Position numbers and translations under genes: made by a program
Shown here: piece by piece, positions 6,546-61,254 of the stretch
Layout: each line of letters opens with the position of its first letter
Position numbering within the stretch: position 1 is the first letter of the stretch
Notes under the pieces: model-generated
The model's input: only the letters and a program-made list of their open reading frames with translations
What the model was told of the DNA's origin: nothing
The model's database searches: none
Source of the DNA: Octopus vulgaris
Lineage: Eukaryota
Direction of reading: 5' to 3'
Assembly: GCA_951406725.2 (NCBI GenBank)
Contig: OX597819.1
Coordinates: 98,270,001-98,334,000, forward strand
Length of the DNA stretch: 64,000 nucleotides

Positions 6546-7769
6546 TACGCGGGAGTACCCAAAAGAAACTGGAACTTTCCAATATTATTTTATTCACTTA
6601 GGTTTACATCTTTACACCTTTGCCGCCTTCAAAGTATTCTTCATCTGAAGCAATGTATCGGCCAAGACGCGTTTTCCACTGTTCGAAGCAGTGCTAGAAT
6701 TCTTGCGAAGTAACGCGTTTTGACGCCTCCATCGTTTTTTCCTTTACCTCTTCCACATCTTCAAAACGTTTTCCTTTAAGGACTTTTTTCAATCGGAGTA
6801 ACAAAAAAATGTCGCAGACAACAAGATCAGATGAATAGGGAGGGTGGGTAAGCGGGGTCATGTCATTTTTGGTCAAAGGCGCATTGTCGTGCTGAAACCA
6901 CTCGTCTCACTTTGCCACAAATCGGGATGTTTCCGTCTAACCGCGTCTCGCAACTGCTTCAAAACTTTGAAGTAAAATGTCTGTTTGATAATTTGACCTG
7001 GACAAACAAACTGTGTGTGAAGAAATCCTTTCGCATCGATGAAACAAATCAACATCATCTTGACATTGGACTTCACTTGACGCACTTTTTGGTGCATGGT
7101 GACATCGAATGCTTCCATTGACTTGATTGCTGCTTCGTTTCCGGGTCGTAGCTGTAGCACCAGCTTTCTTCACTAGTGATGACTTTCGAAAAAGGTCCTG
7201 ATCAACTTCCAGCTGTTCTTTCAGTCCACGACACACATTCAGTCGTCATTGCTTTCGATCTTCCATGAGCAAGTGAGGCAGAAATTTTACTGCAACTCTT
7301 TTCATTCGCGATTCCTCGCTCAAAATTCGTTGGCAGGAGCAACTATATCAACAAGTTCCTCAAATGTTCGACGGCGGTCCTCCAAGAATGTTTGTGATGT
7401 TTTCGACGGTCACTCTGAACGAGGTTGGTCTTCAAGAGACAAGTGACCATTTCTAAACCAATCGTAAACTTGTGCTTTGCTCATGGCAGCGTCCTCGTAA
7501 GCTGTTTCGGCCGCCGTTTTCCCCGGCAGAAAACAATTCCACGGAAGCACGATGTTTCTTCGATTCAGCCATTGCAAAAATCGACGAACAGGGAAAAAGC
7601 GCTGCAAAACAAAGACGCACCACGTGGCAATACAACTTCACACGATGATGCAGGCAGGAAAACTGGTGCCTAAGGGTTGCATCAAGTGGCTTCTAGCGGC
7701 GGAAACCTGAACTACAACGGACTTGTCCCACAGAGAACGTTTCCGGTTACTTTTCAGTACCCCCTTGTG
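6546..7769 (-). mobile_element. Full-length degenerate mariner transposon (~1.22 kb)
   Basis: Minus-strand fragments HPPYSSDL (YSPDL motif), KKVLKGKRFEDVEEVK, KSNVKMMLICF, MSKAQVYDWF and LEDQPRS. Degenerate TIRs cgcgggagtacccaaaagaaactggaa / ttccggttacttttcagtacccccttg. Confidence 0.9.
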
Positions 7770-9235: not shown

Positions 9236-10997
9236 ACTATTCAGTTTTATTTCAAGATTTCTTACCAATAGAGAAAGAGCCGGTTTCTAGCCTTGATCCA
9301 CGGCTCCTTCATTGTAATTTTAGCATCAATAGGGTAATTTCGTATGTATGAGTTTTATGTATGTCTTCTCGTGCATATCTTTAATATCTAGACATGTTCA
9401 TATATACTTAAAATAATAAATAGATTTTTACAATTCCAGTGATTGATTGGATCAGTAATCTTCAAATCAGCTTACTCTTTTCTGGTTTTGAGAAGCCTAA
9501 TTTCTCAAGATTGGTATTTAGGCAGTGTGTTACATATCCCAGTGCCCCAATAATTACAGGTATAAACCTGAACTTGTAATCTGGATAGAGTAACTGTAGA
9601 TTTCTCAATAGTTCAACATAGGTATTCTCTTTTTCACTGATCGTAAGCTTTATGTTAACATCTGCTGGGCAGCTGATTTCCACAAGCGTACACAGCCTGT
9701 CTTCTCTATTCCAAATCATTATATCAGGTGGTTACATGTGCTTACATTTTATTGAGGTTTTCACTGGGTCATTCCACCAGTACTCATTTTTATTATGAGT
9801 GGCTATGGCTTCTGCCTTACTGTGGGTTCTTATTTTTTGTGTCCTCGGGATTATCCTTCCGACAGATTTCATTATATAGTGTCCTAGCTACATCATGTCT
9901 CATCGGTGGATAATACCGTGATGAAATTTTCGGATAACTGCTTATGATGTGGGTGATATTTTCGGTGTTAAGTCCACAAAGTCTGCATCGGTTGTCACAT
10001 TTTACTGCTTTTCTTGCATCTCTGTCCCTTTTGTGCATCAGGTATTTGGTTGATATTTCCTGTTCCTGGATTACAAACGCATACCCTTTAAAGTGGGAGA
10101 TAGTAGTCCGGTTATTGGTCCATGACAGACTGCTTTGATGATCAATGTTACTATCATCTCGGAGCTTTCTACTAACATATCCATGCATGGTTTTCTGCTC
10201 ATATATGCTCATCTTTTCATCTGATGATACTTTCCGATAGAGTCGTGCGACTTCATGTGGCATGTATTTAAGGTTATCAGAAAAGGAATGCTTCTCAAGG
10301 AGCTGCTTTCCAAGTCTTATGATGTTATCAGCCTCATGTATGCAAACTTGGTCAAGGGATACACTTCGTCACTTGGTGGTCAAAAGATGTTGCCGAAGGG
10401 ATATGATACGACATTCAAAGACATTTTGGATCGATGTTAATCTTCTGCCGCCTTGTTTTTGTTTTAGGTAGAGGCGGTCTACGTCACTGTTTATTTGAAA
10501 ATTATGTGTGCTTGTTAGTATTTTCAGAATTTTCACATCAGTGGCTCGGATCTCATCAAGCATCCAGTGAAGCAGGCCAAATGTTGGTATGAGTACTGGC
10601 ACGGCAAACATATAGTGGGCCACTACTTTATTCGGCTGTAGTATTTTTTAGTGACACGGGTTTTGTTACAAGTGTCATTGTAAGATATATTTTCATCCTC
10701 CCCTAGATACCTGTAACATTCCTCACCGGATATAGAAGAAATAGTCAAATCAATGATGGAGATGTTGCTGGACTGGTTTACAGTTTCTTCCTTTTTACAA
10801 CCATATAAGAACACTTATCCTGACCAAACTCCAATCCTATATCCTTTGAGAATGTTGTAACCAGGCCAAGGCTCTTTTTCATCTCGTGCATATTCTTTGC
10901 ATAAAGTTTCAAGCCATCCACGAATAAACAGTGGTTAATTTTGGCATTTCTGTTTTCTTGTGAACCAGTGAGGTATCCTTCAGACTTCCTTAACATG
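9236..10997 (-). mobile_element. 5'-truncated RLE-type non-LTR retrotransposon (R4/Dong-like)
   Basis: INHCLFVDGLKLYA (RT active-site region), FGQDKC, YRYLG, RLYL...GGR.L, CRLCG...ENITHIIS, RHD and VEISCP...K...Y...IPVIIGALG. Flanked on both sides by (TATG)n. Confidence 0.88.
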
Positions 10998-11736
10998 TAT
11001 GTATGTATGTATGTATGTATGTATGTATGTATGTATGTATGTATGTATGGATGGATGGATGGATGGATGGATGGATGGATGGATTGATGGATGGATTGAT
11101 GGATGGATGGATGGATAGATGGATGGATGGATGGATGTATCTGTGTCTATACGGTTGCATTAAAACAAATCTGAGACAAGCAATTTTATTGACTTACGTA
11201 TAGGCCTGTGGTTACGTGGATATATATATCTTCATGTATGTGCACACGTGCACACGTGCACCTAGTTTCATCTGTATTTATATGTTCGCATCTGTGCATT
11301 TGTGCCAAAGGTGTGCATCTACACCGACATCATAAAGTTGGGTCCAGTGAGAGCGGCCCACACCGGGTGAGTTTATCGTTTTTGCTATCTCTTCCAGTTG
11401 ACAAAAACTGTTTTATATAGGCAGTAATATGTGTAAAATGTGAAACTAATCCGTTAGTAACATTAACGTTCAACATTAAAGTCAGCATATAACTTGACGC
11501 AGTGACGGAGCCCGAAATTTTGCAACAGCCCGGGCATCAGGGAACTATGATGACGAGGCAAAGTTTTAATATAAGTAACATGTGTTGTCATACGCAATGA
11601 AACAAATTTAAAGTTATTTCGCTGTGCAATTGTAATGTTATGGTAAACAAAATGAATAAGACATAAATGCTGCCAGTGTCCTATTACACTAACTGCACGA
11701 CAGTGTGGATTTTTGCCGTGATTTTTGTTTACTATG

Positions 11737-13874: not shown

Positions 13875-15090
13875 ATAATAATAATTATTATTCATTGTTT
13901 CTGGGCTTATTATATGAGTCTCTGTCAATTTTTGTGGCCCTACTTTCGCTATTACTACTGCTCCCCGAGCAGTAGTAATAATAATTATAATAGTAACTCA
14001 GACAGCTCTGGGAATAACCCCGCCAAACACGAAACAAACTACGCGTACAACGTTCAAATCCTGGGTAAAAACAAACCAAAACATAAGAATAGGACAAGCA
14101 GAAGTAGGTACTTGAGAACCAATGATGGGATAGAGCAAAATAGCAACGGACAACTCATCAGCATCGTTAAACACAGAATATCACAAAATCGCAACACCAC
14201 TCCAAACTCCCGAACAAATAAACCTATAGGGGATATAAAAAAAACATAATGTCCTCTGATGCATCGCAATTTGGGACTCAAACGTCTCGTCCAAGATCGG
14301 GAAACAATTCTTCGCCGCACTCGATCGTTGCTTCCCTAAAGACAGTACCTACAACCAGCTGAGCACACTGTAAAAGTGTCGTATGCAAATTCGTCAAACA
14401 TGGGGCACAACATTCATATGACTAACAATCGAAAACTGAAACAGCGTGCAAGCAACTTCGAAAATAGGGCCACTAAAATTGACGGAGACTCATATAATAA
14501 GCCTAGAGACAATGAAAATACCAACCACATAACGCATCACAGTCACAATAACTCGAACAATAACACTAACCAAACAAAATACGGTAACTTCAACAACAAC
14601 TTTAGCAACCAACCAACACATGATATCCACAACAACTCAAATAACAACACAAATACACCCAGAAATAATAAAAATAAGGACAGGATAACTACGAGCACAA
14701 ATGAAAATAGCACTGACTGGACAGGTACTGGCCATACACACGCAAACAAAAAAAGTGGCAATTTATGCTCATGCAGAGACCGAGCGAAATGTCCTCTGGG
14801 TAACCAATGCAAGAGCCGCAATGTGGTGTACATGTGCACCGTAAATACTAGAGGAGGCTCGTATGTATATATCGGTGCATCGGCCAATATTTTCAATAAT
14901 AGATATTGAAGCCACATTGCCAGTTTCCGAAGAATCCATAAACGGCACGCAACATCACTGGCGACTCAAAGAAGAGAAAGTAAAATACGACCTGACCTGG
15001 TCAGTAATTAGACACGCCGTCCCTATAACAAACTATTCCAGAAATGCCAACTATGTTACAAAGAATCGCTGTCTATATTGTTGACGAAAG
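13875..15090 (+). mobile_element. Degenerate Penelope-like element (RT C-terminus, Cys linker, GIY-YIG)
   Basis: KIGKQFFAALDRCFP...TVKVSYANSSNM, then CSCRDRAKCPLGNQCKSRNVVYMCTV...YIGAS...FNNRY, then KYDLTWSVI, with frameshifts. 13890-13948 is an inverted copy of about 14458-14520. Confidence 0.85.
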
Positions 15091-19599: not shown

Positions 19600-20079
19600 T
19601 GACTGTTGGCCGAAATCTGCCTTTCAGCCTCTGACCCTCGTTCTGTTAACATCGCTGTTTTCGTCCGCCACTATAAAGGCTTTTTCCATTGCGCCAGAGA
19701 AAAAATTTGTTTGCTTGTTATCAGTCGTAAGACACTGTTGTTTTCACCGTTAATGCTTCTGTATTTCATGTTTCTGTATTCCATTATTGTTTTTTGTTTT
19801 TTTTTTTATATCTGTCCCTTTTGCTGTCCTGGTGTTCGTATGCATTCGATCCTTCTTCCAGGAAATCTACGCTTCCAGCTTAGTTTTTCCAATGCTCGTT
19901 GCTTGGTTTTTCTTGGAGGGCTGGCCGTGATCTAGTAATCTCAAGATTAATCAGCCGAAATTACTACGATGATCCGGTTCTTGACTGAAGACTGAGGGTT
20001 TCGAATGTCCTGTCCGTGTTTATTGTGTCGTCTTCTAAGAGTTATACGTTCTTGTCCATGTTGTATTTTTCTACATACC

Positions 20080-20085
<6 letters not shown>
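19600..20085 (+). mobile_element. (TA)n-associated repeat family (also 7797-7915, 20205-20330, 29923-29992, 55767-55945)
   Basis: Shared atcagccgaaatt...gatgatccggttcttgactgaagat...ttcgaatgtcc. Confidence 0.7.
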
Positions 20086-20117
<32 letters not shown>

Positions 20118-20325
20118 CCAGCATGGCCACAGCTCATTAGCTGAAACTGGAAAAATCAAAATCAAAAATCAAAATCATATGTATGTATGTATGTATATGT
20201 ATATGTAAAAAAACACAAACTGGGACAAGAACGGCAAAACATTTAGAAGACGATACAAAAAAACGGACGGGACATTCGAAGCCTTCGATCTTCAGCCAAG
20301 AACCGGATCATCTTCGCAATTTCGG

Positions 20326-20380
<55 letters not shown>

Positions 20381-21745: not shown

Positions 21746-21832
21746 CAATTGAGGGTAAAATTAATTAATTAATCAATTTCACCAAGTGTTCAGTATGTAA
21801 AAGGACCATTTAAGGCGAATTCAAAATATTAC

Positions 21833-22105
21833 ATTATATAATTAGGGCTTAGTAAAATAAATTACTTTGCCACATACTGAACTTAGTAGAAATAGGAGCC
21901 AAAAAATTTTTCTTAGCATTTCTACTACTTAAAGAAAATTTCTCTCAGATAATGTTTACTCCAGACAGCTCACCTTCGTGAGCTGTCTGGAGTAAACATT
22001 ATCTGAGAGAAATTTTCTTTAAGTAGTAGAAATGCTAAGAAAAATTTTTTGCTCTATTTCTATAAGTTCAGTATGTGGCAAAGTAATTTATTTACTAAGC
22101 CTAAT

Positions 22106-22113
<8 letters not shown>
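21833..22113. repeat. ~140-bp inverted repeat with 4-nt loop
   Basis: ...ccagacagctcac-cttc-gtgagctgtctgg...; the arms extend to attatataattag / ctaattatataat. Confidence 0.95.
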
Positions 22114-22148
<35 letters not shown>

Positions 22149-24488: not shown

Positions 24489-24892
24489 ATATATATATAT
24501 ATAATATATATGTAATATATATATAATATATTGATTGATTGATTGATTCTAGTTTCAGCTCACGAGCTGTGGCCATGCTGGGGCACTTAAGCAAAATACA
24601 TACTTGGGGAGTGGTCAAGGAGTCAGTGGTAAGTTAGATGAAAGAATAGATAAATAAAAATAAAATAATAAAATTATTTTATTTTTTTATTTTTTTTTTA
24701 TTTTTTTATTTTTATTTTATTATTTTATTTTTTTATTTTTTTATTTATCTATTCTTTCATCTAACTTACCACTGACTCCTTGACCACTCCCCAAGTATGA
24801 TATTTTGCGCTATGCCTACCCCCAAAAAGTCCCCACCACCACTCCTTTAAACCTGCCTAAATGTATAAATGCTAATACAATTCTTGTTAAAT

Positions 24893-24943
24893 AGCTTCCT
24901 GAAGATTTCTCTTGAATGAAACAGTACTAGTCCTGTAGAAGCT
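24893..24943 (+). ncRNA. Type I hammerhead ribozyme motif
   Basis: agcttc-CTGAAGA-[tttctcttgaat]-GAAA-cagtactagtcctg-TA-gaagct. Stem III is one mismatch from the palindrome caggactagtcctg. Confidence 0.8.
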
Positions 24944-28672: not shown

Positions 28673-28799
28673 TGTGTGTGTATATATATATATATCGACG
28701 TGTATTTGTCTACATACATGAGTATGTCACATACTATTCTTGTGTGTGTGTGCGCGCGTACATGTGTGTGTGCGCGTACACGTGTGTGTGTGTGTATGT

Positions 28800-29004
28800 A
28801 TAAAATTAGTGTACATTAAAACACATGAGAGGTGCCCTGACAGGACACCTAACATGCTAGAAAGATCAGTCAAAATTCAAATTACGGCTAGAGGTAATTT
28901 CGAAATTATCCCTAACTGTGGTTTAGATCTTGACTGGTCCTTCTAGCATGTTAGGTGTCCTGTCAGGGCACCTCTTACGTGTTTAAATGTACACTAATTT
29001 CATA
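28800..29004. repeat. ~205-bp spacerless imperfect palindrome
   Basis: Centred on aatttcgaaatt, with arms aaattagtgtacatt...gaggtgccctgacaggacacctaacatgctagaa / ttctagcatgttaggtgtcctgtcagggcacctc...aatgtacactaattt. Confidence 0.95.
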
Positions 29005-29267: not shown

Positions 29268-29491
29268 CAGTAATCTCTCGCCTTATCGCGGTTCACTTAT
29301 CGCGATTTATTATTTAAGTTAACATCGATTCCTCCGCGGTGATGTTTTGCATTTATAATAACGTAAATATATAGAGATTATAAAAATAATTTTAAAAAAT
29401 ATACAGTACAGTACTGCTTCTACTTGGCGGATTTTCACCTATCGCGGGGGCGTTTTGGAACGTAGCACTCGCGATAGTCGAGGGTTTACTT
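29268..29491. mobile_element. Tc1/mariner-pogo type MITE
   Basis: TIRs cagtaatctctcgccttatcgcg / cgcgatagtcgagggtttact, in a TA-rich context. Confidence 0.7.
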
Positions 29492-29588
29492 TATATATAT
29501 ACATATATATATACCGTAAAATATAATTGCCAACTAAATGTAGCGGTCCCAAAGAGGACGACGCTACTGTGTGTGTGATTATGTGGTA

Positions 29589-29629
29589 CACACAGACCCG
29601 GGTTTCTGAGTAGTAACCTGTCATCAGTG
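29589..29629 (-). ncRNA. Minimal hammerhead ribozyme motif (left arm of a palindrome)
   Basis: Reverse complement: ca-CTGATGA-caggttactactca-GAAA-cccggg-TC-tgtgtg. Confidence 0.65.
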
Positions 29630-29638
29630 ATTGATAAT

Positions 29639-29683
29639 CACACACTGATGACGGGTTACTATTCAGAAACACGGGTCTGTGTG
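29639..29683 (+). ncRNA. Minimal hammerhead ribozyme motif (right arm of a palindrome)
   Basis: cacaca-CTGATGA-cgggttactattca-GAAA-cacggg-TC-tgtgtg. Confidence 0.7.
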
Positions 29684-30006
29684 TGTATCACGTAAGGCTA
29701 GCGATGACAACGACGATTTCCCCTCGCAAATACTAATCGGACATAGACAGTGTGTCGTTAGCCAGCTGGAGGAGCTGTCCTCCTGGGGCTAAAATCAACA
29801 GCAGCAGTATCCTCTGTAGGACCGCCACATTTGTTTGGCAATTATATTTTACAATTCCGTACTGCTACTGTTTACTTCTCGCTCAGAGATTTAATATTGT
29901 ACATATATATATATATATATATATTAATCAGCCGAAATTGCGAGAATGATCCGGTTCTTGACTGAAGATTAAAGGCTTCGAATATGGCCGTCACATATTA
30001 CATTTA

Positions 30007-30199: not shown

Positions 30200-31560
<1,361 letters not shown>

Positions 31561-32895: not shown

Positions 32896-33725
32896 TAAGA
32901 AAAAGAGAGGGAAGAGGACTTATTGGATGCGAACACAGCATTAGAGCAGAAGAAAACAACATAGCATGGTATGCAAAAGATGTCACAGAACCGCTATTAT
33001 TAAAAATAAGAAAGCCAGGCTTGTGTAGGATGAAAGATTGCAAAGATAAAGCACTATACAAAAATTGAAAATGAATGAAACTGGAAATATGTGGGTAAAG
33101 AAAAGAATGCATGATCAATTTCATAGGGATGTTGAAGATAAGACAGAAAGAGAAAACTGATGTTTGTGGATGACTAAAAGTGATTTAAAACCGGAAACGT
33201 AGGCTCTAATCTGTGGTGCCCAAGGGCAAGCACTAAAAACAAACTACAGAATATTAAACACAACAGAAGGGGATAAGTGCAGAATCTGTGGATAAAACGG
33301 TGAAACCGCACGGCGTATTACCAGCCAATGTACGCCACTAGCCCAGAAGGAATATAAGAGACGCCACGACAATATAGCCAGGTTTGTCCATTGGACACTT
33401 TACAAGTATGGATTTGACGGAGCAAAAATTTGGTACGACCACAAACCTGAAGGCATCGTCGAAAATAGAAATGCAAAGATTTTATGGGATTTCATGATTC
33501 AGTGCGACCATGAGATAGAGAATAGGAAGCTAAATATAGTCTTAATTGAGAAAGAAAACAAACTTTGCTGGATCATAGATATAGCATGCCCAGCAGACAA
33601 CAAGGTATGTGATAAGAAAGAAAGAAAAGTTGATAAATATGACAGGTTAGCTTGGGATGTTAAGCAGTTGTGGTCGATGAAAAAGGTAGCAGTAGTACCA
33701 ATAATTGTCGGAACCCTGGGAATAG
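32896..33725 (+). mobile_element. RLE-type LINE 3' fragment (R4/Dong-like)
   Basis: REGRGLIG, a CRICG zinc knuckle, YKRRHDNIAR and ILWDFMIQCDHEIENRK..IVLI...IIDIACP...K..KY..L...VVPIIVGTLG. Begins at an (AAT)n tract. Confidence 0.88.
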
Positions 33726-34598
33726 AAATGAGTTGCGAGGTCACTGGTGCCAAGCTGTATCGGCCTTTGCCTTTCCCTTGAATGACATCGGACTTGTGCA
33801 ATCTCATGATCATTCATTTACATTTACTTACATAATTAAATGAAATACAGATATGCTTTTATTTCTTTATTCTTTAACTTGTTTCCGTCATTTCAATGCG
33901 GCCATACTGGAGCACTACTTTCAATGGTTTTAGTCGACGAAATTGACCCCGGGAGTTATTCTTTGTAAACCTAGTACTCGTTCTATCGGTCTCTTTTGCC
34001 GAACTGCTAAGTTACGTGGACGTAAACACATCAACACCTGTTGTCAAGCGTTGATGGGACGGGAGCAAACACAGACTCAAAAATGCACGCGGGCTTCTTT
34101 CACTTCTTTTAGTTTCCGTCTACCAAATCCACTCACAAGGCTTTGGTAGGCCCGAGGCTTTAATAAAAGACACATACCCAAGGTACCACGCTGTGAGACT
34201 GAATCTGGAACCATGTGGTTGGGAAACAACCTTTCTGTATGTGTATATTAGTGTAAAATAGCGTGGACTATAAAAGATTCCAGACGTTGAATGTCCGGAA
34301 CCACTTACAAGTTGGTGTCGTACCTACATACGCTACATGGCATTTTCTTCAGCGCTCCACTGAATCTGCCAATCGACCGCCCTAGATCTCTCCAGCATAT
34401 AACTTCAAACAATATTGTATTATGTAATAATTCATAACGTCACTACGAGGCCACATCTGGGGGAATGACATTCAGTCGATTGATTTAAGGCTTCGCTTCC
34501 ATTTAATTTATCGGAAGTATTGAAGACAAATTCGCTTTGACGTAAATGGTATACGTAATTCTGCCATTAACACACATACATACACACACACACATGTA

Positions 34599-36125: not shown

Positions 36126-36543
36126 TGTGTGTGTTTGTGTATCTGTGTTTGTCCCCTAGCATTACTTGACAACCGATGCTGGTGTGTTCATGTCCCCGTT
36201 ACTTAGCGGTTCGGCAAAAGAGACTGATAGAATAAGTACTGGGCTTACAAAAGAATAAGTTCCGGGGTCGAGTTGCTCGATTAAAGGCGGTGCTCCAGCA
36301 TGGCCGCAGTCAAATGACTGAAACAAGTAAAAGCGTAAAAGAGTATATATATATATATATATACATGCATATATGGGTACAGGACATCACCAACGGTGCC
36401 AGTAACATGAAGTGTGTAAACAACGAGAAAAAATAGAGAATAGGACAAGTTAACTCAGAAAAAGGACCCGTCATCAGTTGTCGGCCATCTATCTACTCCT
36501 CATTTCGAGCATTAAATGACGAGTGTGTGTGTGTCTATACAAG

Positions 36544-36622: not shown

Positions 36623-36835
36623 TTATATATTCCTTTATGAATAACAAGTTATCAAGCCCTCATTCATTTAATATAGTTGTTAAATTATTTATTTTGTTAC
36701 ATCAGTTGATAGAGTTTCAATGTATATTCCTCTATTTGATTAATATAGAAATAATAATTCTATATTAATCAAATACAGGAATACACACTGGAACCCTTAC
36801 TATCTGATGTATCAAAATGAATAATTTAACAATTA

Positions 36836-37060
36836 TCTATACATATAAAACACAGGATGTGTATCTGTGTGTTTGTCATGTCGTTAAAACTCGAGATCCA
36901 CCCAACCGATTTTAACGAAATTTTACATATGCATTACATAGGGTCCATGGAGTGTCATGGGTCAAAAGCATTTTCAACTTCTTGCCTAATGCGGAACCAG
37001 GGGCAGATAAAGCACATTTTTAAAGCATTTTCGCAGCGTTAAGGACCGTACGTAACTTGA
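36836..37060 (+). mobile_element. Helitron-like 5' end
   Basis: a|TCtatacatataaaa...gtgtgtttgtc...ccgattttaacgaaatttt, the same architecture as 4246. The 3' end was not located. Confidence 0.55.
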
Positions 37061-38529: not shown

Positions 38530-39110
38530 TCAAAGTCTGCGAGACAGCAACTCAATCCGAAGCGGTTGGTGCCCTCCGAGTCGATAAAAGAAACCTGTCC
38601 ATGTGTTTACACTGCTAAAACTTCAAATTTGAAATTAAGCAGTGTGTTGGAATTTCTGGATCTAAGAAGAATACGAGATCTTTCTGCTACACGTAAGTTG
38701 CATTTCAAAGATCCAGTTACATATGGCTTGGATTTTTCCACTATTCTCCACTTAATTGTATATGATGTGGAGCTACTCTTCAGATTCCAAACGTGGCTAG
38801 CCAGCTTAGTTGCATTGATTTTATTGATGTGCCGGAAAGAAGATAGGAGGTTTGCGTAACGTCGCTTGAATTTGTCCTGATATAACCCGATGTAATTCTT
38901 CTTTTCAAGTGGTTTAACTTGAAGCATAACTGTAACTTCCCCCTCGTATATGACGTTGTTTATCATGCACACCTGGTTAAGAGAGCAAGTTTTATGGTCC
39001 CGACAATTACAACTGGGAGTGGGTTCTTGGAAATTTTTTAACAGACACTCAATTAAAATATCTTACAGCTGCTACCTCAATATGAAGAACATCATATCTC
39101 GTAAAAACTA
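38530..39110 (-). mobile_element. Penelope-like element relic with internal inversion
   Basis: Minus ORF NNVIYEGEV...NYIGL...FKRRYANLLSSFRH...TKLASHVW...IKWRIV (GIY-YIG). The RT-end motif KFFNRHSIKISYSCYLNMKNII lies on the opposite (+) strand at about 39030-39110. Confidence 0.85.
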
Positions 39111-45094: not shown

Positions 45095-46992
45095 TTAATA
45101 ATAATAATAACAATAATAACAACAATAATAATAACAACAATAATAATAGAAGAAGAAGAAGAAGAAGAAGAAGAAGAAGAAGAAGAAGAAGAAGAAGAAG
45201 AAGAAGAAGAAGAATGGGAGGAGGAGGAGGAGGAGGAGGAGGAGGACGACGACGACGACGACGACAAAGAGGACGAGGAGGAGGACGACGACGACGACAA
45301 CGGCGACTGGAAAAAATTTATAATAATGATTTCTAATAAAAGCCACGGGGCCAGAAATGTTGGGAATATATGTAGTTAACCACGTCCCAGATCGCAATGT
45401 TAATATATTAATTTATTACTGGTACTTAGGCAGTGAGGTGGCAGATTCGTTAGCATGCCGCACAAAATACTTCGCAGTATTTCTTCTGTTTTACATTCAG
45501 AGTACAAATTCTGCCGAGGTTGATATTGCCTTTCATCCTTTCGGGGTTGATAAAAGTAATACCAGTCCAACACTAGGGTGGATGTAATCGGCTAAGACCT
45601 TCCCTTGAAATTCCAGGACTTGTGCCTATAGCAGAAATACAAATATATTTTTCTCTATTCTAGTCACAAGGCCCGAAATTTGGGGGAAGGGGGCCAGTCG
45701 ATTTCATCGACCCCAATACACAGCTGGTACTTAATTTATCGACCCCGAAAGGATGACAGGCCAAGTCGATCTAGCCGGAATTTGAACTCAGAACGTAGCG
45801 GCAGACGAAATACCTATTTCTTTACTACCCACAAAGGGGCTCAACACAGAGGGGACAAACAAGGACAGACAAACGGATTAAGTCGATTATATCGACCTCA
45901 GTGCGTAACTCGTACATAATTTATCGACCCCGAAAGGATGAAAGGCAAAGTCGACCTCGGCGGAATTTGAACTCAGAAAGTAACGGCAGACGAAATACGG
46001 CTACGCATTTCGCCCGGCGTGCTAGCGTTTCTGCCAGCTCGCCGCCTTAGAAATATAAATATATTGCTGATACATCAGTTTATCGAAGGTGGAAGCATGA
46101 AAGGAAAATAGCAAAAAATTTGAACTGAGAGCGTAAAAGGCTGAAACCATCAAAATGACTCCGTTCGCTTATAGTAAAATGTACTCAAGGAGAATTGTTT
46201 AAAATTACATTGTCGTAGTAACATTATGTAGATCTGCATGTTTTATACGATGAGGTGGCGTACATTAATTACCCCTACATCCTTCTCTCCTGTTAAGAAG
46301 AACAGTATTTTCATCCTTATGCAATCTGCCTGACTTCCTCTCCCAACATTTGTGTTAAATAGCAGCGTTAGCGTACAACCACTTACGTAACAATGTGATA
46401 ATTGGTGTTTTGTTAAGGACTTAACAAACGAAGAAACTGATGCTAGGGGATCGGTGGATATGGATAAAATGGAGCAGGAGATAAAGTAGTTTTCCTCAAA
46501 AGTTAGATAGGGGCCATAAAGTCAAATAAAGAGTTACTGGAACACGGTTTGCAATGGTGGTGGGGAGAGCGGACCTACGGGAGCAACATAAATGATTTTA
46601 ATATGGAATAAGCTGCAACTTAAGCGAAACATGGCTACTGTGAGGGCTGTGTATATCGTGGGAGGTTTGTAAGTAAAATATAGGCAGCTGATGGTAGCGA
46701 CTGCTTGGAATCAAGGCTTGCAGATTATATGCCATTCTTAAGTGGACAGTGGAGAGTTAATGTCAGCACCTGTAGAAGTCTATTGTATGACTGGCTAGAG
46801 GCACGATCCGGCAGTCAGCCGAGACAATAACTAGCCTCTGGAGATGGTTTTACAATAACTCAGATTGAGTAACTAACAAATTGGGGAGTAATTATGTACA
46901 TAAAGACGAGAAAGGAACAGCTCACGCACGCACGCACACACGCACACACACCTCGATGAATATACATAGATATACATATGTATGTATGTATG

Positions 46993-47066: not shown

Positions 47067-47511
47067 TGTATGTATGTGTGTGCGTGTGTAAACCAACACA
47101 CACACATAAACATATGCATACATACATACATACAAGACCGTACATACGCACATACACAATACAGCCATCATTATTGCTATACACGTCCATAGATATCTTG
47201 GCAAACCGACCAAAGTAACATCTTTCTTCCACATCATCATCGTCATCATCATCATCATCATCATCATCATCGTCGTCATCATCATCATCATCATCATCAT
47301 CACCATCATCATCATCGTCTATTCTTTTCACAAACGCAAATATTACATATTTCTACTTTCATGTGCGTACGCGTATATGTGTGTGTAATATAATTTTATA
47401 ATGTAATATAATATAATATTAATATAATATAATATAAAATAATATAATATAATATAATATAATATAATATAATATAATATAATATAATATAATATAATAT
47501 ATATATATATA

Positions 47512-48790
47512 TATCTATACAATATGTTACATTACTCGGTAGTCAAGATAAAACTCTGAGTTTCAGATGCCGAAGTGGAAATCCACAACACCATCTCTTC
47601 GGTTATCTGGCTATTTGAAAACGTTATGAAAAAATACCGTTAAAAATGAAGGGAAATTACTCTGTTATAACTCTGCTTTGCCTGCGTACTTATACATCGC
47701 TCGCATTTTTCGTCATAAAAATTATATAAAAATACATAAAAATATATAAAAATATATAAAAATATATAAAATCTTCTTGGGACATAACACAGAAAGCATG
47801 TTCTATCCGTTTTCTTTAGGGGACCAAAAACGTAACAGAAATTTAGTCACATGTGGGCATGATCCGAAAAGCTCTGTCCTTGTATTTAGACATGTGGTAG
47901 GGTCTAAGCTGCTTTTCCAGATAAGCCATCTCTCCATGTCGCATAAACCGCACCTTCCGCTGCCGTTAGTATAGGGCTTACATCTGGCCAAAATCTTCCA
48001 TTGTATGTTATAATCGACACCTTTATCTCTTAAAGACCAAATATGATTGGATAATTGTGTCGCTTTTCTTTTGTTCCAGTGCCTAAAGCTCAAAGTGTGG
48101 TTATTGAACCTGGCCTTGAAATTACCCTCTGTCAGGCCCACGTATTTCTTCGTCGAAACGGTGTCTTTAGTGGTTAGAGAGTTTACGGTAGCTTCATATA
48201 TGATGGTCTTGGACGTGTCGATTATAACATACAATGGAAGATTTTGGCCAGATGTAAGCCCTATACTAACGGCAGCGGAAGGTGCGGTTTATGCGACATG
48301 GAGAGATGGCTTATCTGGAAAAGCAGCTTAGACCCTACCACATGTCTAAATACAAGGACAGAGCTTTTCGGATCATGCCCACATGTGACTAAATTTCTGT
48401 TACGTTTTTGGTCCCCTAAAGAAAACGGATAGAACATGCTTTCTGTGTTATGTCCCAAGAAGATTTTATATATTTTTATATATTTTTATATATTTTTATG
48501 TATTTTTATATAATTTTTATGACGAAAAATGCGAGCGATGTATAAGTACGCAGGCAAAGCAGAGTTATAACAGAGTAATTTCCCTTCATTTTTAACGGTA
48601 TTTTTTCATAACGTTTTCAAATAGCCAGATAACCGAAGAGATGGTGTTGTGGATTTCCACTTCGGCATCTGAAACTCAGAGTTTTATCTTGACTACCGAG
48701 TAATGTAACATATTGTATAGATAAATTTCCTCTATTTACATAATATTGAGGTCTCTTTCTTTCTTTTGTTATCTTACCGTTTTATCAATA
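47512..48790. mobile_element. Penelope-like element 3' fragment (GIY-YIG endonuclease + 3' UTR) with inverted duplication
   Basis: Minus ORF 47803-48234 reads IIYEATV...KKYVGLTEGNFKARFNNHTLSFR...TQLSNHIW...WKIL...CGLC..E..LI...LN.R.E...C.H, a Neptune-type PLE endonuclease. 509-bp inverted arms at 47512-48020 and 48215-48723, flanked by TA-rich microsatellites. Confidence 0.9.
48627..48689 (+). ncRNA. Hammerhead-like motif in PLE 3' UTR (twin at 47546-47608, minus strand)
   Basis: agataa-CCGAAGA-gatg[gtgttgtggatttccacttcgg]catc-t-GAAA-ctcagag-TT-ttatct. It has a U4C change and one extra nucleotide before GAAA. Confidence 0.55.
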
Positions 48791-53135: not shown

Positions 53136-53237
53136 GATCAAACTTCCCATAAGGTGATTGAAAAAAGACGACGTGATCGGATTAACAATTGCTTGGCTGA
53201 ACTTAGTCAAACAGTTCCGGCAGCTTTTGCCAAACAG
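53136..53237 (+). CDS. HELT: HELT/Heslike bHLH transcription factor, basic region + helix 1 exon (DQTSHKVIEKRRRDRINNCLAELSQTVPAAFAKQ)
   Basis: Polypyrimidine tract + ttcAG acceptor (53134-35), 102-nt phase-0 open exon, CAG|GTCAGT donor. The peptide SHKVIEKRRRDRIN.CL.EL..TVP.A.AKQ matches HELT as recalled better than Hey, Hes or cwo. It is absent from the ORF track. Confidence 0.9.
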
Positions 53238-53335
53238 GTCAGTCTCCACACCAATTAGATATCTAACAGCTATCAACTACTTCTATATTACTGTCCTTCA
53301 CAAGTAGGTTGATGCGCTGCAGATTTTGATTCTTA

Positions 53336-55391: not shown

Positions 55392-56370
<979 letters not shown>

Positions 56371-57464: not shown

Positions 57465-58234
57465 TGTGCATGTATGTATATATGAATGTATGTAGGTATA
57501 TATGTATGTATGTATGCATGTATGTATGTATGTATGAATTATCAAATTCGACTTGTCAGCAACATTGAGTGAAACACATAAACACACAGACACATATACA
57601 CACACGCACACATACACACATACACACGCACATACGCACGCATGTATATTACATGCCAAAGAGAGAACCACGAACAAACGATGAAACCTCTATCTACAAA
57701 AGAAGCAATCAATTGTCCCTCATATCACACCCTACAGGCTTAAAAAAGGAAGTACTCATTTAATCAGTTGTTTTAAATGTACTATTTTTAAGAGGAAATA
57801 CGGGGTGGTCACGCCTAGAACAACTTAGGGTATATTAGTTTGCTGAATATTCGCTGATGTGGGATTAATGATCAACAATTCACACACACATGCACACACA
57901 CACACGCACGCACACACGCACGCACACACGCACACGCACACGCACACACACACACACACACTCTCTCTCTCTCTTTCTCTCTTTCTCACACAAACATTCA
58001 TACCCATATAAAACTAACTCTTTTGAGAGGAAAAACTGATGTGATGGTTCAGATTTGCCTATTAATAACTCTAGATTGTATTTCTTACTAATAACTCTAG
58101 ATTGTGTAAAAATACTACATGAGAATGAATAATAGCCGTCCGAAACGTCACGATACAGCTTTTATAAAATACCTGTCAACAAAACTGTACCAATATTGGA
58201 CTACTTATTTCCTTTTTCCTTGCTTTTATTTCAG

Positions 58235-58331
58235 TCTTCTGGAAAACTTGAAAAGGCAGAAATTCTGGAAATGACCGTTGAATACCTAAGAGCTGTCCAA
58301 GCTACAGAAATCGGAATGAGGTTTGAAAATG
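58235..58331 (+). CDS. HELT: HELT/Heslike bHLH, loop + helix 2 exon (SSGKLEKAEILEMTVEYLRAVQATEIGMRFEN)
   Basis: Pyrimidine-rich tttcAG acceptor, in frame with the previous exon (AKQ|SSGKLEKAEILEMTV.YLRA), G|GTAAGG donor in phase 1. The first exon and the Orange-domain exon were not found in the window. Confidence 0.9.
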
Positions 58332-59233: not shown

Positions 59234-59334
59234 GTGGCGTTGATAGCACAATTTTAACATGTAATTAACGTAGTTATCTATATAATGAAGTGTGTTCGTT
59301 CGCCCGGGTGTCATTATTTTTGCGAACGCCGCAA

Positions 59335-59392
59335 GACGGCGACACGTGCACAGTTTGTGCAATCCACGTGACGTACGAATGCCACGTGACCC
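59335..59392. promoter_or_regulatory. Candidate intronic enhancer: triple CACGTG
   Basis: CACGTG at 59343, 59365 and 59383, within 46 bp. Confidence 0.5.
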
Positions 59393-61254
59393 ACTCTCCA
59401 ATCAAGTCATCTTCAAATCTCGTACATTGCTGAAGATGGTGGCAGTCAGTAAATGAAGGCCTGAATTGGTACCAAGTGTTATAATTAGGACAGCAGCAGC
59501 AGGCTTTAGCTTATTAAATAACGGCTCTAGTTTACCCATTCTATATTCAAATAAGACCGCTATTAGTACCATCGCTACTATGATCATTATCACCACCACA
59601 GCCATCATCATTGTCACAACCAACACCGTTAGGAACACTATCACTACTACCACCATCATCACTACCACCACCACTATAACATACAATAACAACTCCAACA
59701 CCACCATCACTTCTTGCCAACACCACTACCACCATGAGCACCACTACCATGCCACTACCATTGTCACCACCGTTACCGAATCGGATCTAGTCTTTTTCAT
59801 TCGCAAATGAGCCCCCTTTAATTTTGCTCAGATTGCTTTCAATTTTGGTGTATCGATGCAACTCTGAATTTTGATTACGATCAACCAATTACTTTATCTC
59901 GTAAATTAAAGAATCTGATGTTGTTTGGAATTGAAATTGGGAAATTTGGGTAATTTTAGGCAATCATCATACAGCGAGGCATTAACTGCTTGTTACCATG
60001 ACAACTGCACGTTGTGTTGCGCTGATTCTTCCCACCACTAGATTTCTTCACCCGCGCGTTTTGTTTTAATAAAAATTTATTTTTATCAATTAGTATTTTA
60101 TTATAGATATATTTCGTCAATTGCCTTAATATTTTGCATATTTTTCATATATATATAGCAAAAGTTGTTTGCGATGTTTATACAGTTTTTGGACATCATG
60201 AAGGTGAAAGGAATATGTGAACTTAGTACTGATAATTTGACATAATTTTTGAATTCTGCATGCAAAAACATATAAGATACAGGTATTCTATTTCTTGGGA
60301 CAAATTTTTTGTTGACCAGTGTTATTCTTATCGTAGTTTACAAATCCAAGCATAGAAACGTTACTCAACTTTGAAGTTTTGGAGACAAACGCCTACATTT
60401 CACGCACGCACTTATGTATTAATGATGTACAGAAATACATGACAGGCATACATAATACTGAAATACGCATAAAGTAAACACATGCAGACAAATATATTAA
60501 TATAACAAAGTTTTAAAAAATAATAAAAACATACAATCAATGAAGAAACAAAAGAAACAGTAAGATGATACACATTGACTTCTTTAGGTATTTCTGTTTA
60601 TTTAGAAAACTACAATAAAATTAGGTATTTTTGTTTATTTAGAAACCTACAATGAAGAGGTCATTTCACAGACGCTAAACTATAAATTTTACAGGGTACA
60701 ACCTTAAAGTTTATACCGCTCCGCTAAACGTAGAACATTTCTATTTCGCTATTGGCTAAAAATACAGTTTTTTTTTCGATTTTTAAACCTCTGTAGCTTC
60801 TTCCTCTAATTTGTTTCTCCAAAACATCATACCTTCATAGCAATTAGATTGGAAAACTACATTGTTATAACCAATTTTCAGATATTTTACTGTCGTTTAA
60901 AAAATGCATATTTTGCTAATGAAAAAATTAGATCCACCAAATCTACCACCACTGTCATCACCCTTACGAACAATACCACCATCAACAATACTGTTGCCAC
61001 CATCAGCATCACTAACATTACTAAAACTTCCACCACATCCACAATCAAAACCACCACCAATACCACCACCACTAACAACAACACCAACACAAACGCCGCC
61101 ACCATCACCACGACCAACAGCAGCAGCAGATTTTTCCCAATAATACCTGACCACTTTAAAAAATAAACATCAAAATTTATTTCGGATCATATAATCATGG
61201 ATATACGAAAAGAGATGGGATGACCACGAACGGACCGACGATTATAGGTCTACA

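Follow-up and report, generated by a model that had tools for sequence, protein, structure and literature searches.

A 386-nt insert of two head-to-head copies of an abundant hammerhead repeat, likely a non-LTR retrozyme inserted by a Penelope-like element

Animal non-LTR retrozymes have been described as tandem repeats of 150-450 bp that carry type I hammerheads, have a low GC content, are flanked by target-site duplications (TSDs) of more than 4 bp, and are expressed as circles, with Penelope-like elements (PLEs) proposed as the agents that mobilise them (Cervera & de la Pena 2020, PMC7229834). A more recent account gives retrozyme consensus lengths of 51-972 bp and derives retrozymes from pLTRs (Li, Clavereau & Pollet 2026, 10.64898/2026.07.22.740005). 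The insertions of PLEs themselves are marked by an adjacent inverted 5'-truncated copy, a one-sided tail of 30-40 bp, and a bias toward (TA)n (Craig et al. 2021, PMC8557442), and their head-to-head palindromes have been ascribed to self-priming, with deletions at microhomology and TSDs of 8-10 bp (Arkhipova et al. 2013, PMC3846280). Pairs of hammerheads on opposite strands, 100-700 bp apart, have been reported in work on the minimal hammerheads of PLE pLTRs (Cervera & De la Pena 2014, PMC4209133), and uncut RNA was the main template of an anole PLE in vitro (PMC11167929). In the open literature on octopus retrozymes and cephalopod hammerhead ribozymes, a scope outside which most subscription papers lie, no description of a cephalopod retrozyme family was found.

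The locus considered here lies within a window of 64 kb, the whole stretch of DNA analyzed, which is AT-rich animal DNA with many microsatellites and transposon fragments. On balance, we are fairly confident that it is a 386-nt insert in which two copies of an abundant non-coding hammerhead repeat lie head to head, that this repeat is likely a tandem non-LTR retrozyme with a unit of ~293 nt, that it was likely inserted into a TA microsatellite by a PLE, and that the inverted copy likely lost ~100 nt afterwards. Compared with metazoan non-LTR retrozymes, the repeat is alike in its non-coding unit of ~293 nt, its GC content of 45% (below 50%), its head-to-tail joints, a probable TSD longer than 4 bp, and the presence of PLE remnants in the same genome, as well as in having one type I hammerhead with a 6-bp helix I, a 4-bp helix II, and a palindromic loop III. 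The type I assignment follows from a structural descriptor and from family variants that restore stem II and loop III, while Rfam gave no hammerhead match. The repeat differs in that the locus is a head-to-head pair with one deleted arm and no tandem copy, so that a head-to-tail unit of 150-450 bp is found in the family, with joints in all four of the DNA runs compared, but not at the locus; in addition, a C faces an A where its stem II begins at the base. Compared with the inverted insertions of endonuclease-positive PLEs, the locus shares the head-to-head palindromic junction, the shorter inverted copy, the one-sided tail, the (TA)n target, the probable TSD, and a microhomology deletion, but its tail is 47 nt rather than 30-40, and neither the insert nor the inferred unit has an ORF for reverse transcriptase (RT) or GIY-YIG endonuclease.

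Architecture of the insert and its surroundings

The insert has a palindrome at its centre and is set in (TA)n between two probable TSDs of 14 nt (Table 1). The plus-strand copy in it measures 268 nt, and ~100 internal bases are missing from the inverted copy on the minus strand. The two copies face each other in two sets of inverted arms, an inner repeat of 48 nt (29588-29635 and 29637-29684) and an outer pair of 55 nt, and when the arms are compared overall there are 15 differences in 113 positions. The centre of the palindrome also contains a 4-nt duplication that a simple fold-back product would not have. The earlier note on this DNA, which dealt with the centre of the palindrome, had overlooked the outer arms, a further ~210 nt of the unit on the right, and the probable TSD.

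Table 1. Positions of the features of the insert and its flanks within the 64-kb window
Feature	Position	Strand	Remarks
Left copy of the probable 14-nt target-site duplication	29500-29513	+	TA run containing one C; no longer direct repeat is shared by the flanks
3' end of the inverted copy; left outer arm	29514-29570	-	29516-29570 versus 29798-29852, 45 of 55 identical
5-8-nt filler at the internal deletion	29571-29578	-	Same letters as plus 29638-29645 (5' strand of stem I)
Inverted copy, hammerhead part	29579-29629	-	Core 29627-29595
Head-to-head junction, palindrome centre	29628-29638	.	Arms meet at 29635/29637
Type I hammerhead motif, plus	29632-29690	+	CUGAUGA 29645-29651; GAAA 29666-29669; predicted cut after C29677
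Plus copy, 268 nt of the likely ~293-nt family unit	29632-29899	+	Non-coding, 45% GC
35-nt hairpin, common to a far more abundant repeat pool	29758-29792	+	-19 kcal/mol (z -3.07); an equally stable fold in 0 of 200 shuffles
One-sided extension past the inverted-arm end, 47 nt, like the PLE 'tail'	29853-29899	+	Covered by family contigs, which continue beyond 29899
Probable 14-nt target-site duplication, right copy	29900-29913	+	Begins at the very point at which family contigs diverge from the window sequence (loose ends behind 29897/29899)

The 14-nt direct repeat of TA type that abuts both ends of the insert is probably a TSD. It is graded as probable rather than certain because the 14-mer is of low complexity and has 10 occurrences on the window's plus strand; among these, only the one at 29500-29513 ends a TA run. 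With this qualification of the TSD, the marks of PLE-type integration are all present, namely an adjacent inverted 5'-truncated copy, a one-sided tail, and an AT-rich target. What characterizes an autonomous PLE is absent from the insert, as no ORF with RT or GIY-YIG endonuclease was found in it or adjoining the locus, and the inferred unit would close on itself after ~293 nt. Only two stop-to-stop frames of at least 70 aa touch the locus (82 and 70 aa), and both run into TA repeats. No second copy of the hammerhead repeat was found within the 64-kb window.

Several other features of the window were recorded. A 5'-truncated Penelope-like remnant, the 3' end of a GIY-YIG element, occupies 47509-48790 as a head-to-head pair with the same layout as the insert: its 512-bp arms are 99.8% identical (47509-48020 and 48215-48726) and separated by a 194-bp spacer, with a one-sided tail of ~60 nt and (TA)n flanks. 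Each arm carries a hammerhead-like motif with a U4C change in the core and a 6-bp stem I (+48633-48683 and -47602-47552), and one of two longer homologs of this remnant matches Pfam GIY-YIG. Two further GIY-YIG-like remnants, at 14340-15084 (+) and 38607-39062 (-), are 29-38% identical in protein to the one at 48 kb, and no hammerhead was found near either with a relaxed descriptor. Pfam searches of nine ORF pieces from the window named none of the three remnants directly. No autonomous PLE with the sequence of the unit came to light. Comparison of the unit with the 3' ends of all three remnants gave no significant match (best E 0.39), and because the unit does not match these 3' ends, the three remnants are not shown to be its partner.

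The window has 11 local fold-back repeats in all, among them 19950-20330, 21826-22121, 24591-24808, 28799-29004, 36673-36836, 45477-45813, and 55392-56370, several of which adjoin TA runs. No hammerhead core was found in these further fold-back repeats of the window, and a partial copy related to the one at 28799-29004 lies at 30958-31046. Directly to the left of the insert, at ~29270-29490, there is a short element with inverted ends that by eye resembles a DNA-transposon MITE. Fragments of mariner-type transposase (PF01359) and of non-LTR retrotransposon ORFs lie at 6873-7245 (-), 9462-11146 (-), and 33296-33781 (+), with a weak zf-RVT match on the 9.8-kb piece. The window also contains exons of a bHLH gene on the plus strand (~53140-53238, 58230-58330, and probably ~59270-59430), with a Pfam HLH match on the 58.2-kb piece and a readable basic region, which we take to be of the HES/Hey type; relative to the first of these exons, the insert is located more than 23 kb upstream.

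The hammerhead motifs and the deletion junction

The two divergent hammerhead cores reported in the earlier note, each of the form CUGAUGA...GAAA...GUC, are indeed present inside the 48-nt inverted repeat (plus 29645-29677, minus 29627-29595), separated by 17 nt core to core and by 9 nt between the edges of stem I. The plus motif consists of a 5-bp distal stem I, an internal loop, a 6-bp stem I, a 4-bp stem II, and a 2-bp helix III, and it is the sole match to the structural descriptor in the window. When 100 dinucleotide shuffles of the window were used as the null, the descriptor was matched in none with a stem I of at least 6 bp, in 2 with at least 4 bp, and in 5 with 2 bp. The 4 bp of stem II are flanked at their base by a C that faces an A, a non-canonical arrangement that may impair cutting. 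The minus motif is identical to the plus motif at 39 of 42 positions and fails the descriptor; its stem I has only 2 bp and the first pair of its stem II is broken, and its self-complementary loop III is intact. Neither motif was recognized by Rfam, which had no match at gathering score in the window. The 18 weak Rfam matches around the locus, all below the gathering score, were set aside, as none is a hammerhead and most are miRNA hairpin models that fit the palindrome. Two further candidates in the window were also rejected, a 13-nt match to the start of the core at 36466-36478, which has no GAAA/GUC half, and a loose core at 24899, which fails the stem tests.

Close structural relatives of the repeat's hammerhead are the minimal hammerheads of PLE pLTRs (PMC4209133), with which it shares an extra nucleotide between A9 and G10.1, a G10.1-C11.1 pair, and a palindromic loop III for dimer folding. 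It differs from them in its canonical helices of 6 and 4 bp, its distal stem I, and the very short distance to the opposite core, as well as in one more unpaired A before GAAA, for which no counterpart was found in the accessible part of that paper. For the intact loop III palindrome, a 12-mer, the predicted self-dimer energy is -16.3 kcal/mol, versus -2.1 kcal/mol for the mutated plus copy. A transcript of 29560-29720 is predicted to fold as a long hairpin (-89.2 kcal/mol) rather than as a hammerhead (-34.0 kcal/mol with that fold enforced), and the copy at this locus is therefore probably dead as a ribozyme, at least according to these folding models.

The earlier note had drawn attention to a different 12-mer, one repeated on the two strands, and this too is present, at minus 29571-29582 and plus 29634-29645, with a chance expectation of 0.03 and with two matches in none of 100 shuffles. 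From it came the proposal that the source was a tandem or circularly permuted unit of ~56 nt, nearly all ribozyme, of which the minus arm would record one and a fifth turns, and it is true that the junction leading from the 3' strand of stem I into the 12-mer is real and not due to chance. However, there is no 56-nt period on either strand. On either strand, exact self-matches at lags of 40-79 nt reach no more than 6 nt, Tandem Repeats Finder reports TA arrays only, and the supposed unit turns out to be a mosaic of the 5' end of the plus copy and the 3' end of the minus copy. The second turn ends after 12 nt, where the minus strand has no second core and resumes instead with the 3' part of the family, that is, with the left outer arm.

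The structure of this junction is best described as an internal deletion. Homology of the minus copy to the plus copy extends up to 29579 (29579-29594 against 29680-29695, 14 of 16 identical) and resumes at 29570, leaving out ~100 nt that correspond to ~29696-29797 of the plus copy. The first four letters of the 12-mer represent the left edge of the deletion (three of four identical to 29692-29695), and its first seven match the right edge, 29791-29797, at six of seven. The 12-mer is thus made up of 4-7 letters accounted for by the deletion edges and a CA-type filler of 5-8 nt that matches the 5' strand of stem I ~50 nt away. A global alignment that set the 12-mer against 29733-29757 was rejected, since ungapped anchors on both sides fit better. 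A local origin of the 12-mer, which the earlier note had itself named as the alternative, is accordingly what we find, the 12-mer being a junction product at the deletion.

The repeat family in public DNA runs

Of 24 listed sequencing runs, 13 contain part of the stretch, with shares of 0.23 (X1), 0.20 (X2), and at most 0.20 in the other 11, and there is no RNA run among these 13. Four DNA runs chosen from these 24, from four studies and with four organism labels, were compared with 29440-29900 at 80% likeness, and 2,270, 2,220, 1,579, and 2,504 contigs were aligned. It is clear from these thousands of related contigs that the hammerhead repeat is repeated in the genome (1,579-2,504 contigs per run at this likeness). 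Among the best 32 of 8,931 pieces, 8 run from 29632-29639 to 29762-29897, whereas none spans the whole stretch or lies on the left arm.

The contigs also indicate how the copies are joined. Among the best 15 of 115 joints, 4 connect 29899 with the first letters of the hammerhead (29632/29637), and contig entries for such end-to-start joints number 9, 3, 4, and 3 in the four runs, with sides of 24-70 nt. Behind 29899, the loose-end consensus of all four runs continues with ~25 new letters followed by five letters that resemble the start of the unit; these consensuses comprise 27-46 contigs per run and have an agreement of only 0.50-0.62. Because the 268 nt of the plus copy and the ~25 letters of the loose ends would together give ~293 nt, the family likely consists of head-to-tail units of about this length without an ORF, a length read from contig ends, with the end-to-start joints marked 'between: not known' and no array seen whole. 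The family is not uniform, as three of the same best 15 joints go back 109, 176, and 213 nt and point to shorter tandem variants. Joints from the antisense arm to the sense copy also occur at other breakpoints, from 29612 to 29749 in one run and from 29626 to 29843 in three, which is consistent with other head-to-head copies.

The joints and the contig depth bear on the ~56-nt unit as well. Among the best 15 of 115 joints, none goes back 50-60 nt, the shortest going back 109, and the depth of the bin that holds the 12-mer junction (29568-29583) is 11-15% of that of the next bin in all four runs, part of which comes from bin edges. A small subfamily could nonetheless hide, as the joints are known for the best 15 of 115, and published retrozyme consensus lengths go down to 51 bp (10.64898/2026.07.22.740005), a range that would accommodate a unit of this size, which would accordingly not be the smallest reported. 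Taken together with the composition of the junction, this makes an origin from a ~56-nt unit very improbable. Of the retrozyme-like replicon proposed in the earlier note, the class therefore stands, the element being a hammerhead-bearing retrozyme-like repeat, and the size does not, the family unit being likely ~293 nt.

A more serious alternative to a tandem retrozyme is that the 268-nt piece represents the pLTR or 3' end of an autonomous, ORF-bearing PLE, in which case the end-to-start joints would be partial tandems of short 5'-truncated copies. Its size and layout fit PLE ends, for which a 218-bp pLTR, a shorter inverted pLTR, and a 31-bp tail have been described (PMC3846280), and with retrozymes derived from pLTRs by Li et al. 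2026 (10.64898/2026.07.22.740005), the two would form a continuum. Yet the end-to-start joints fall at the same place in all four runs, and the loose ends behind 29899 return to the start of the unit within ~25 nt instead of entering an ORF, with none adjoining the locus either. We thus consider the pLTR of an autonomous PLE unlikely. It is less likely still, to the point of being hardly credible, that the 337-nt stretch between the outer arms is a MITE-like DNA element whose movement depends on its terminal inverted repeats. The 55-nt inverted arms, the TA flanks, and the 11 local palindromes of the window would suit such an element, but family contigs pass 29852 to reach 29897 and beyond, which places the right 'terminal' repeat inside the unit, and the 14-nt duplication lies outside 29899; moreover, none of the best 32 of 8,931 pieces spans the whole stretch.

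Variants among the contigs indicate that the hammerhead is better preserved elsewhere in the family than at this locus. T>C changes at 29662 and 29663, at 87-88% of depth in X7 and 41-53% in X1, make stem II of these other copies Watson-Crick, and an A>C change at 29671 (74% in X1, 87% in X7) restores the palindrome of loop III. In one loose-end consensus (20 contigs, X7), TCGA replaces CCGG with self-complementarity kept. No variant at the opposed C/A of the stem II base was found among 40 of the 135 variant rows. Just before the start of the unit, the loose ends of all four runs contain ATCAG, which yields ATCAGTG and pairs with CACTGAT at the start of the core as a 7-bp inverted repeat.

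Not all parts of the unit behave alike in the contigs. The summed contig depth of the hairpin at 29758-29792 exceeds the combined depth of the two hammerhead bins by a factor of 20-58, depth not being copy number, and that of the 3' tail (29856-29899) is ~3-7 times that of the hammerhead part. This suggests that the hairpin and the 3' tail are modules common to other repeat families. A hammerhead pattern had no matches in viral and metagenome contigs, and a hairpin pattern had none in viral, prokaryote-genome, and metagenome contigs; these are non-animal collections and uninformative on the family.

A proposed origin and its implications

For a tandem retrozyme mobilised by a PLE, the following series of events may account for the locus. 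Tandem copies of the family would be transcribed, and intact hammerheads would cut as dimers by way of the self-complementary loop III to give monomers or circles, a step modelled on other animal retrozymes in which such monomers and circles were demonstrated. The RT/GIY-YIG protein of a PLE would then nick (TA)n and begin copying in the 3' part of the RNA, passing through the hammerhead and ending 13 nt upstream of the core. The template would have been uncut, multimeric, or circular RNA rather than a cut linear monomer, because the cut site, together with sequence 5' of the core, is present in both copies. Subsequently, the new DNA end would fold back on itself and serve as primer for the inverted copy. 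The 7-bp inverted repeat ATCAGTG/CACTGAT is the probable site of this, and fold-back there would explain why the minus motif is without the 5' strand of stem I. Judged from the sequence, fold-back priming is plausible only, because of the 4-nt duplication at the centre, the 15 differences in 113 arm positions, and the head-to-head joints at other breakpoints. Finally, the left arm would later have been deleted at a short TAA/AA microhomology, with 5-8 nt filled in from the stem-I strand ~50 nt away. The deletion and its filler may stem either from repair of the palindrome, through a snap-back insertion, or from reverse transcription, through a double template switch, both of which are local.

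A bolder extension of this scheme, which we put forward as speculative and on the doubtful side, is that the 7-bp inverted repeat overlapping the start of the core is a family-wide self-priming signal at the unit junction, and the hairpin a candidate binding site for the PLE protein, in an undescribed retrozyme family, probably of cephalopods. If the 7-bp repeat is such a signal, it could mask the core in RNA, and once copied into cDNA it would snap back to start synthesis of the inverted copy. If this were true, a 293-nt RNA would offer a minimal system in which to test head-to-head insertion by Penelope-like elements.

The hammerhead repeat is thus best regarded as a further retrozyme family of an already known kind, and an ultra-small replicon is not supported. 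The import of this is modest: a retrozyme family, for which the accessible parts of the literature consulted held no prior description, is added in related animals, probably cephalopods. At the same time, a unit of retrozyme size that bears the marks of PLE integration, namely an inverted copy, a tail, a TA target, and a probable TSD, fits the proposed, as yet unproven, mobilisation of animal retrozymes by PLEs.
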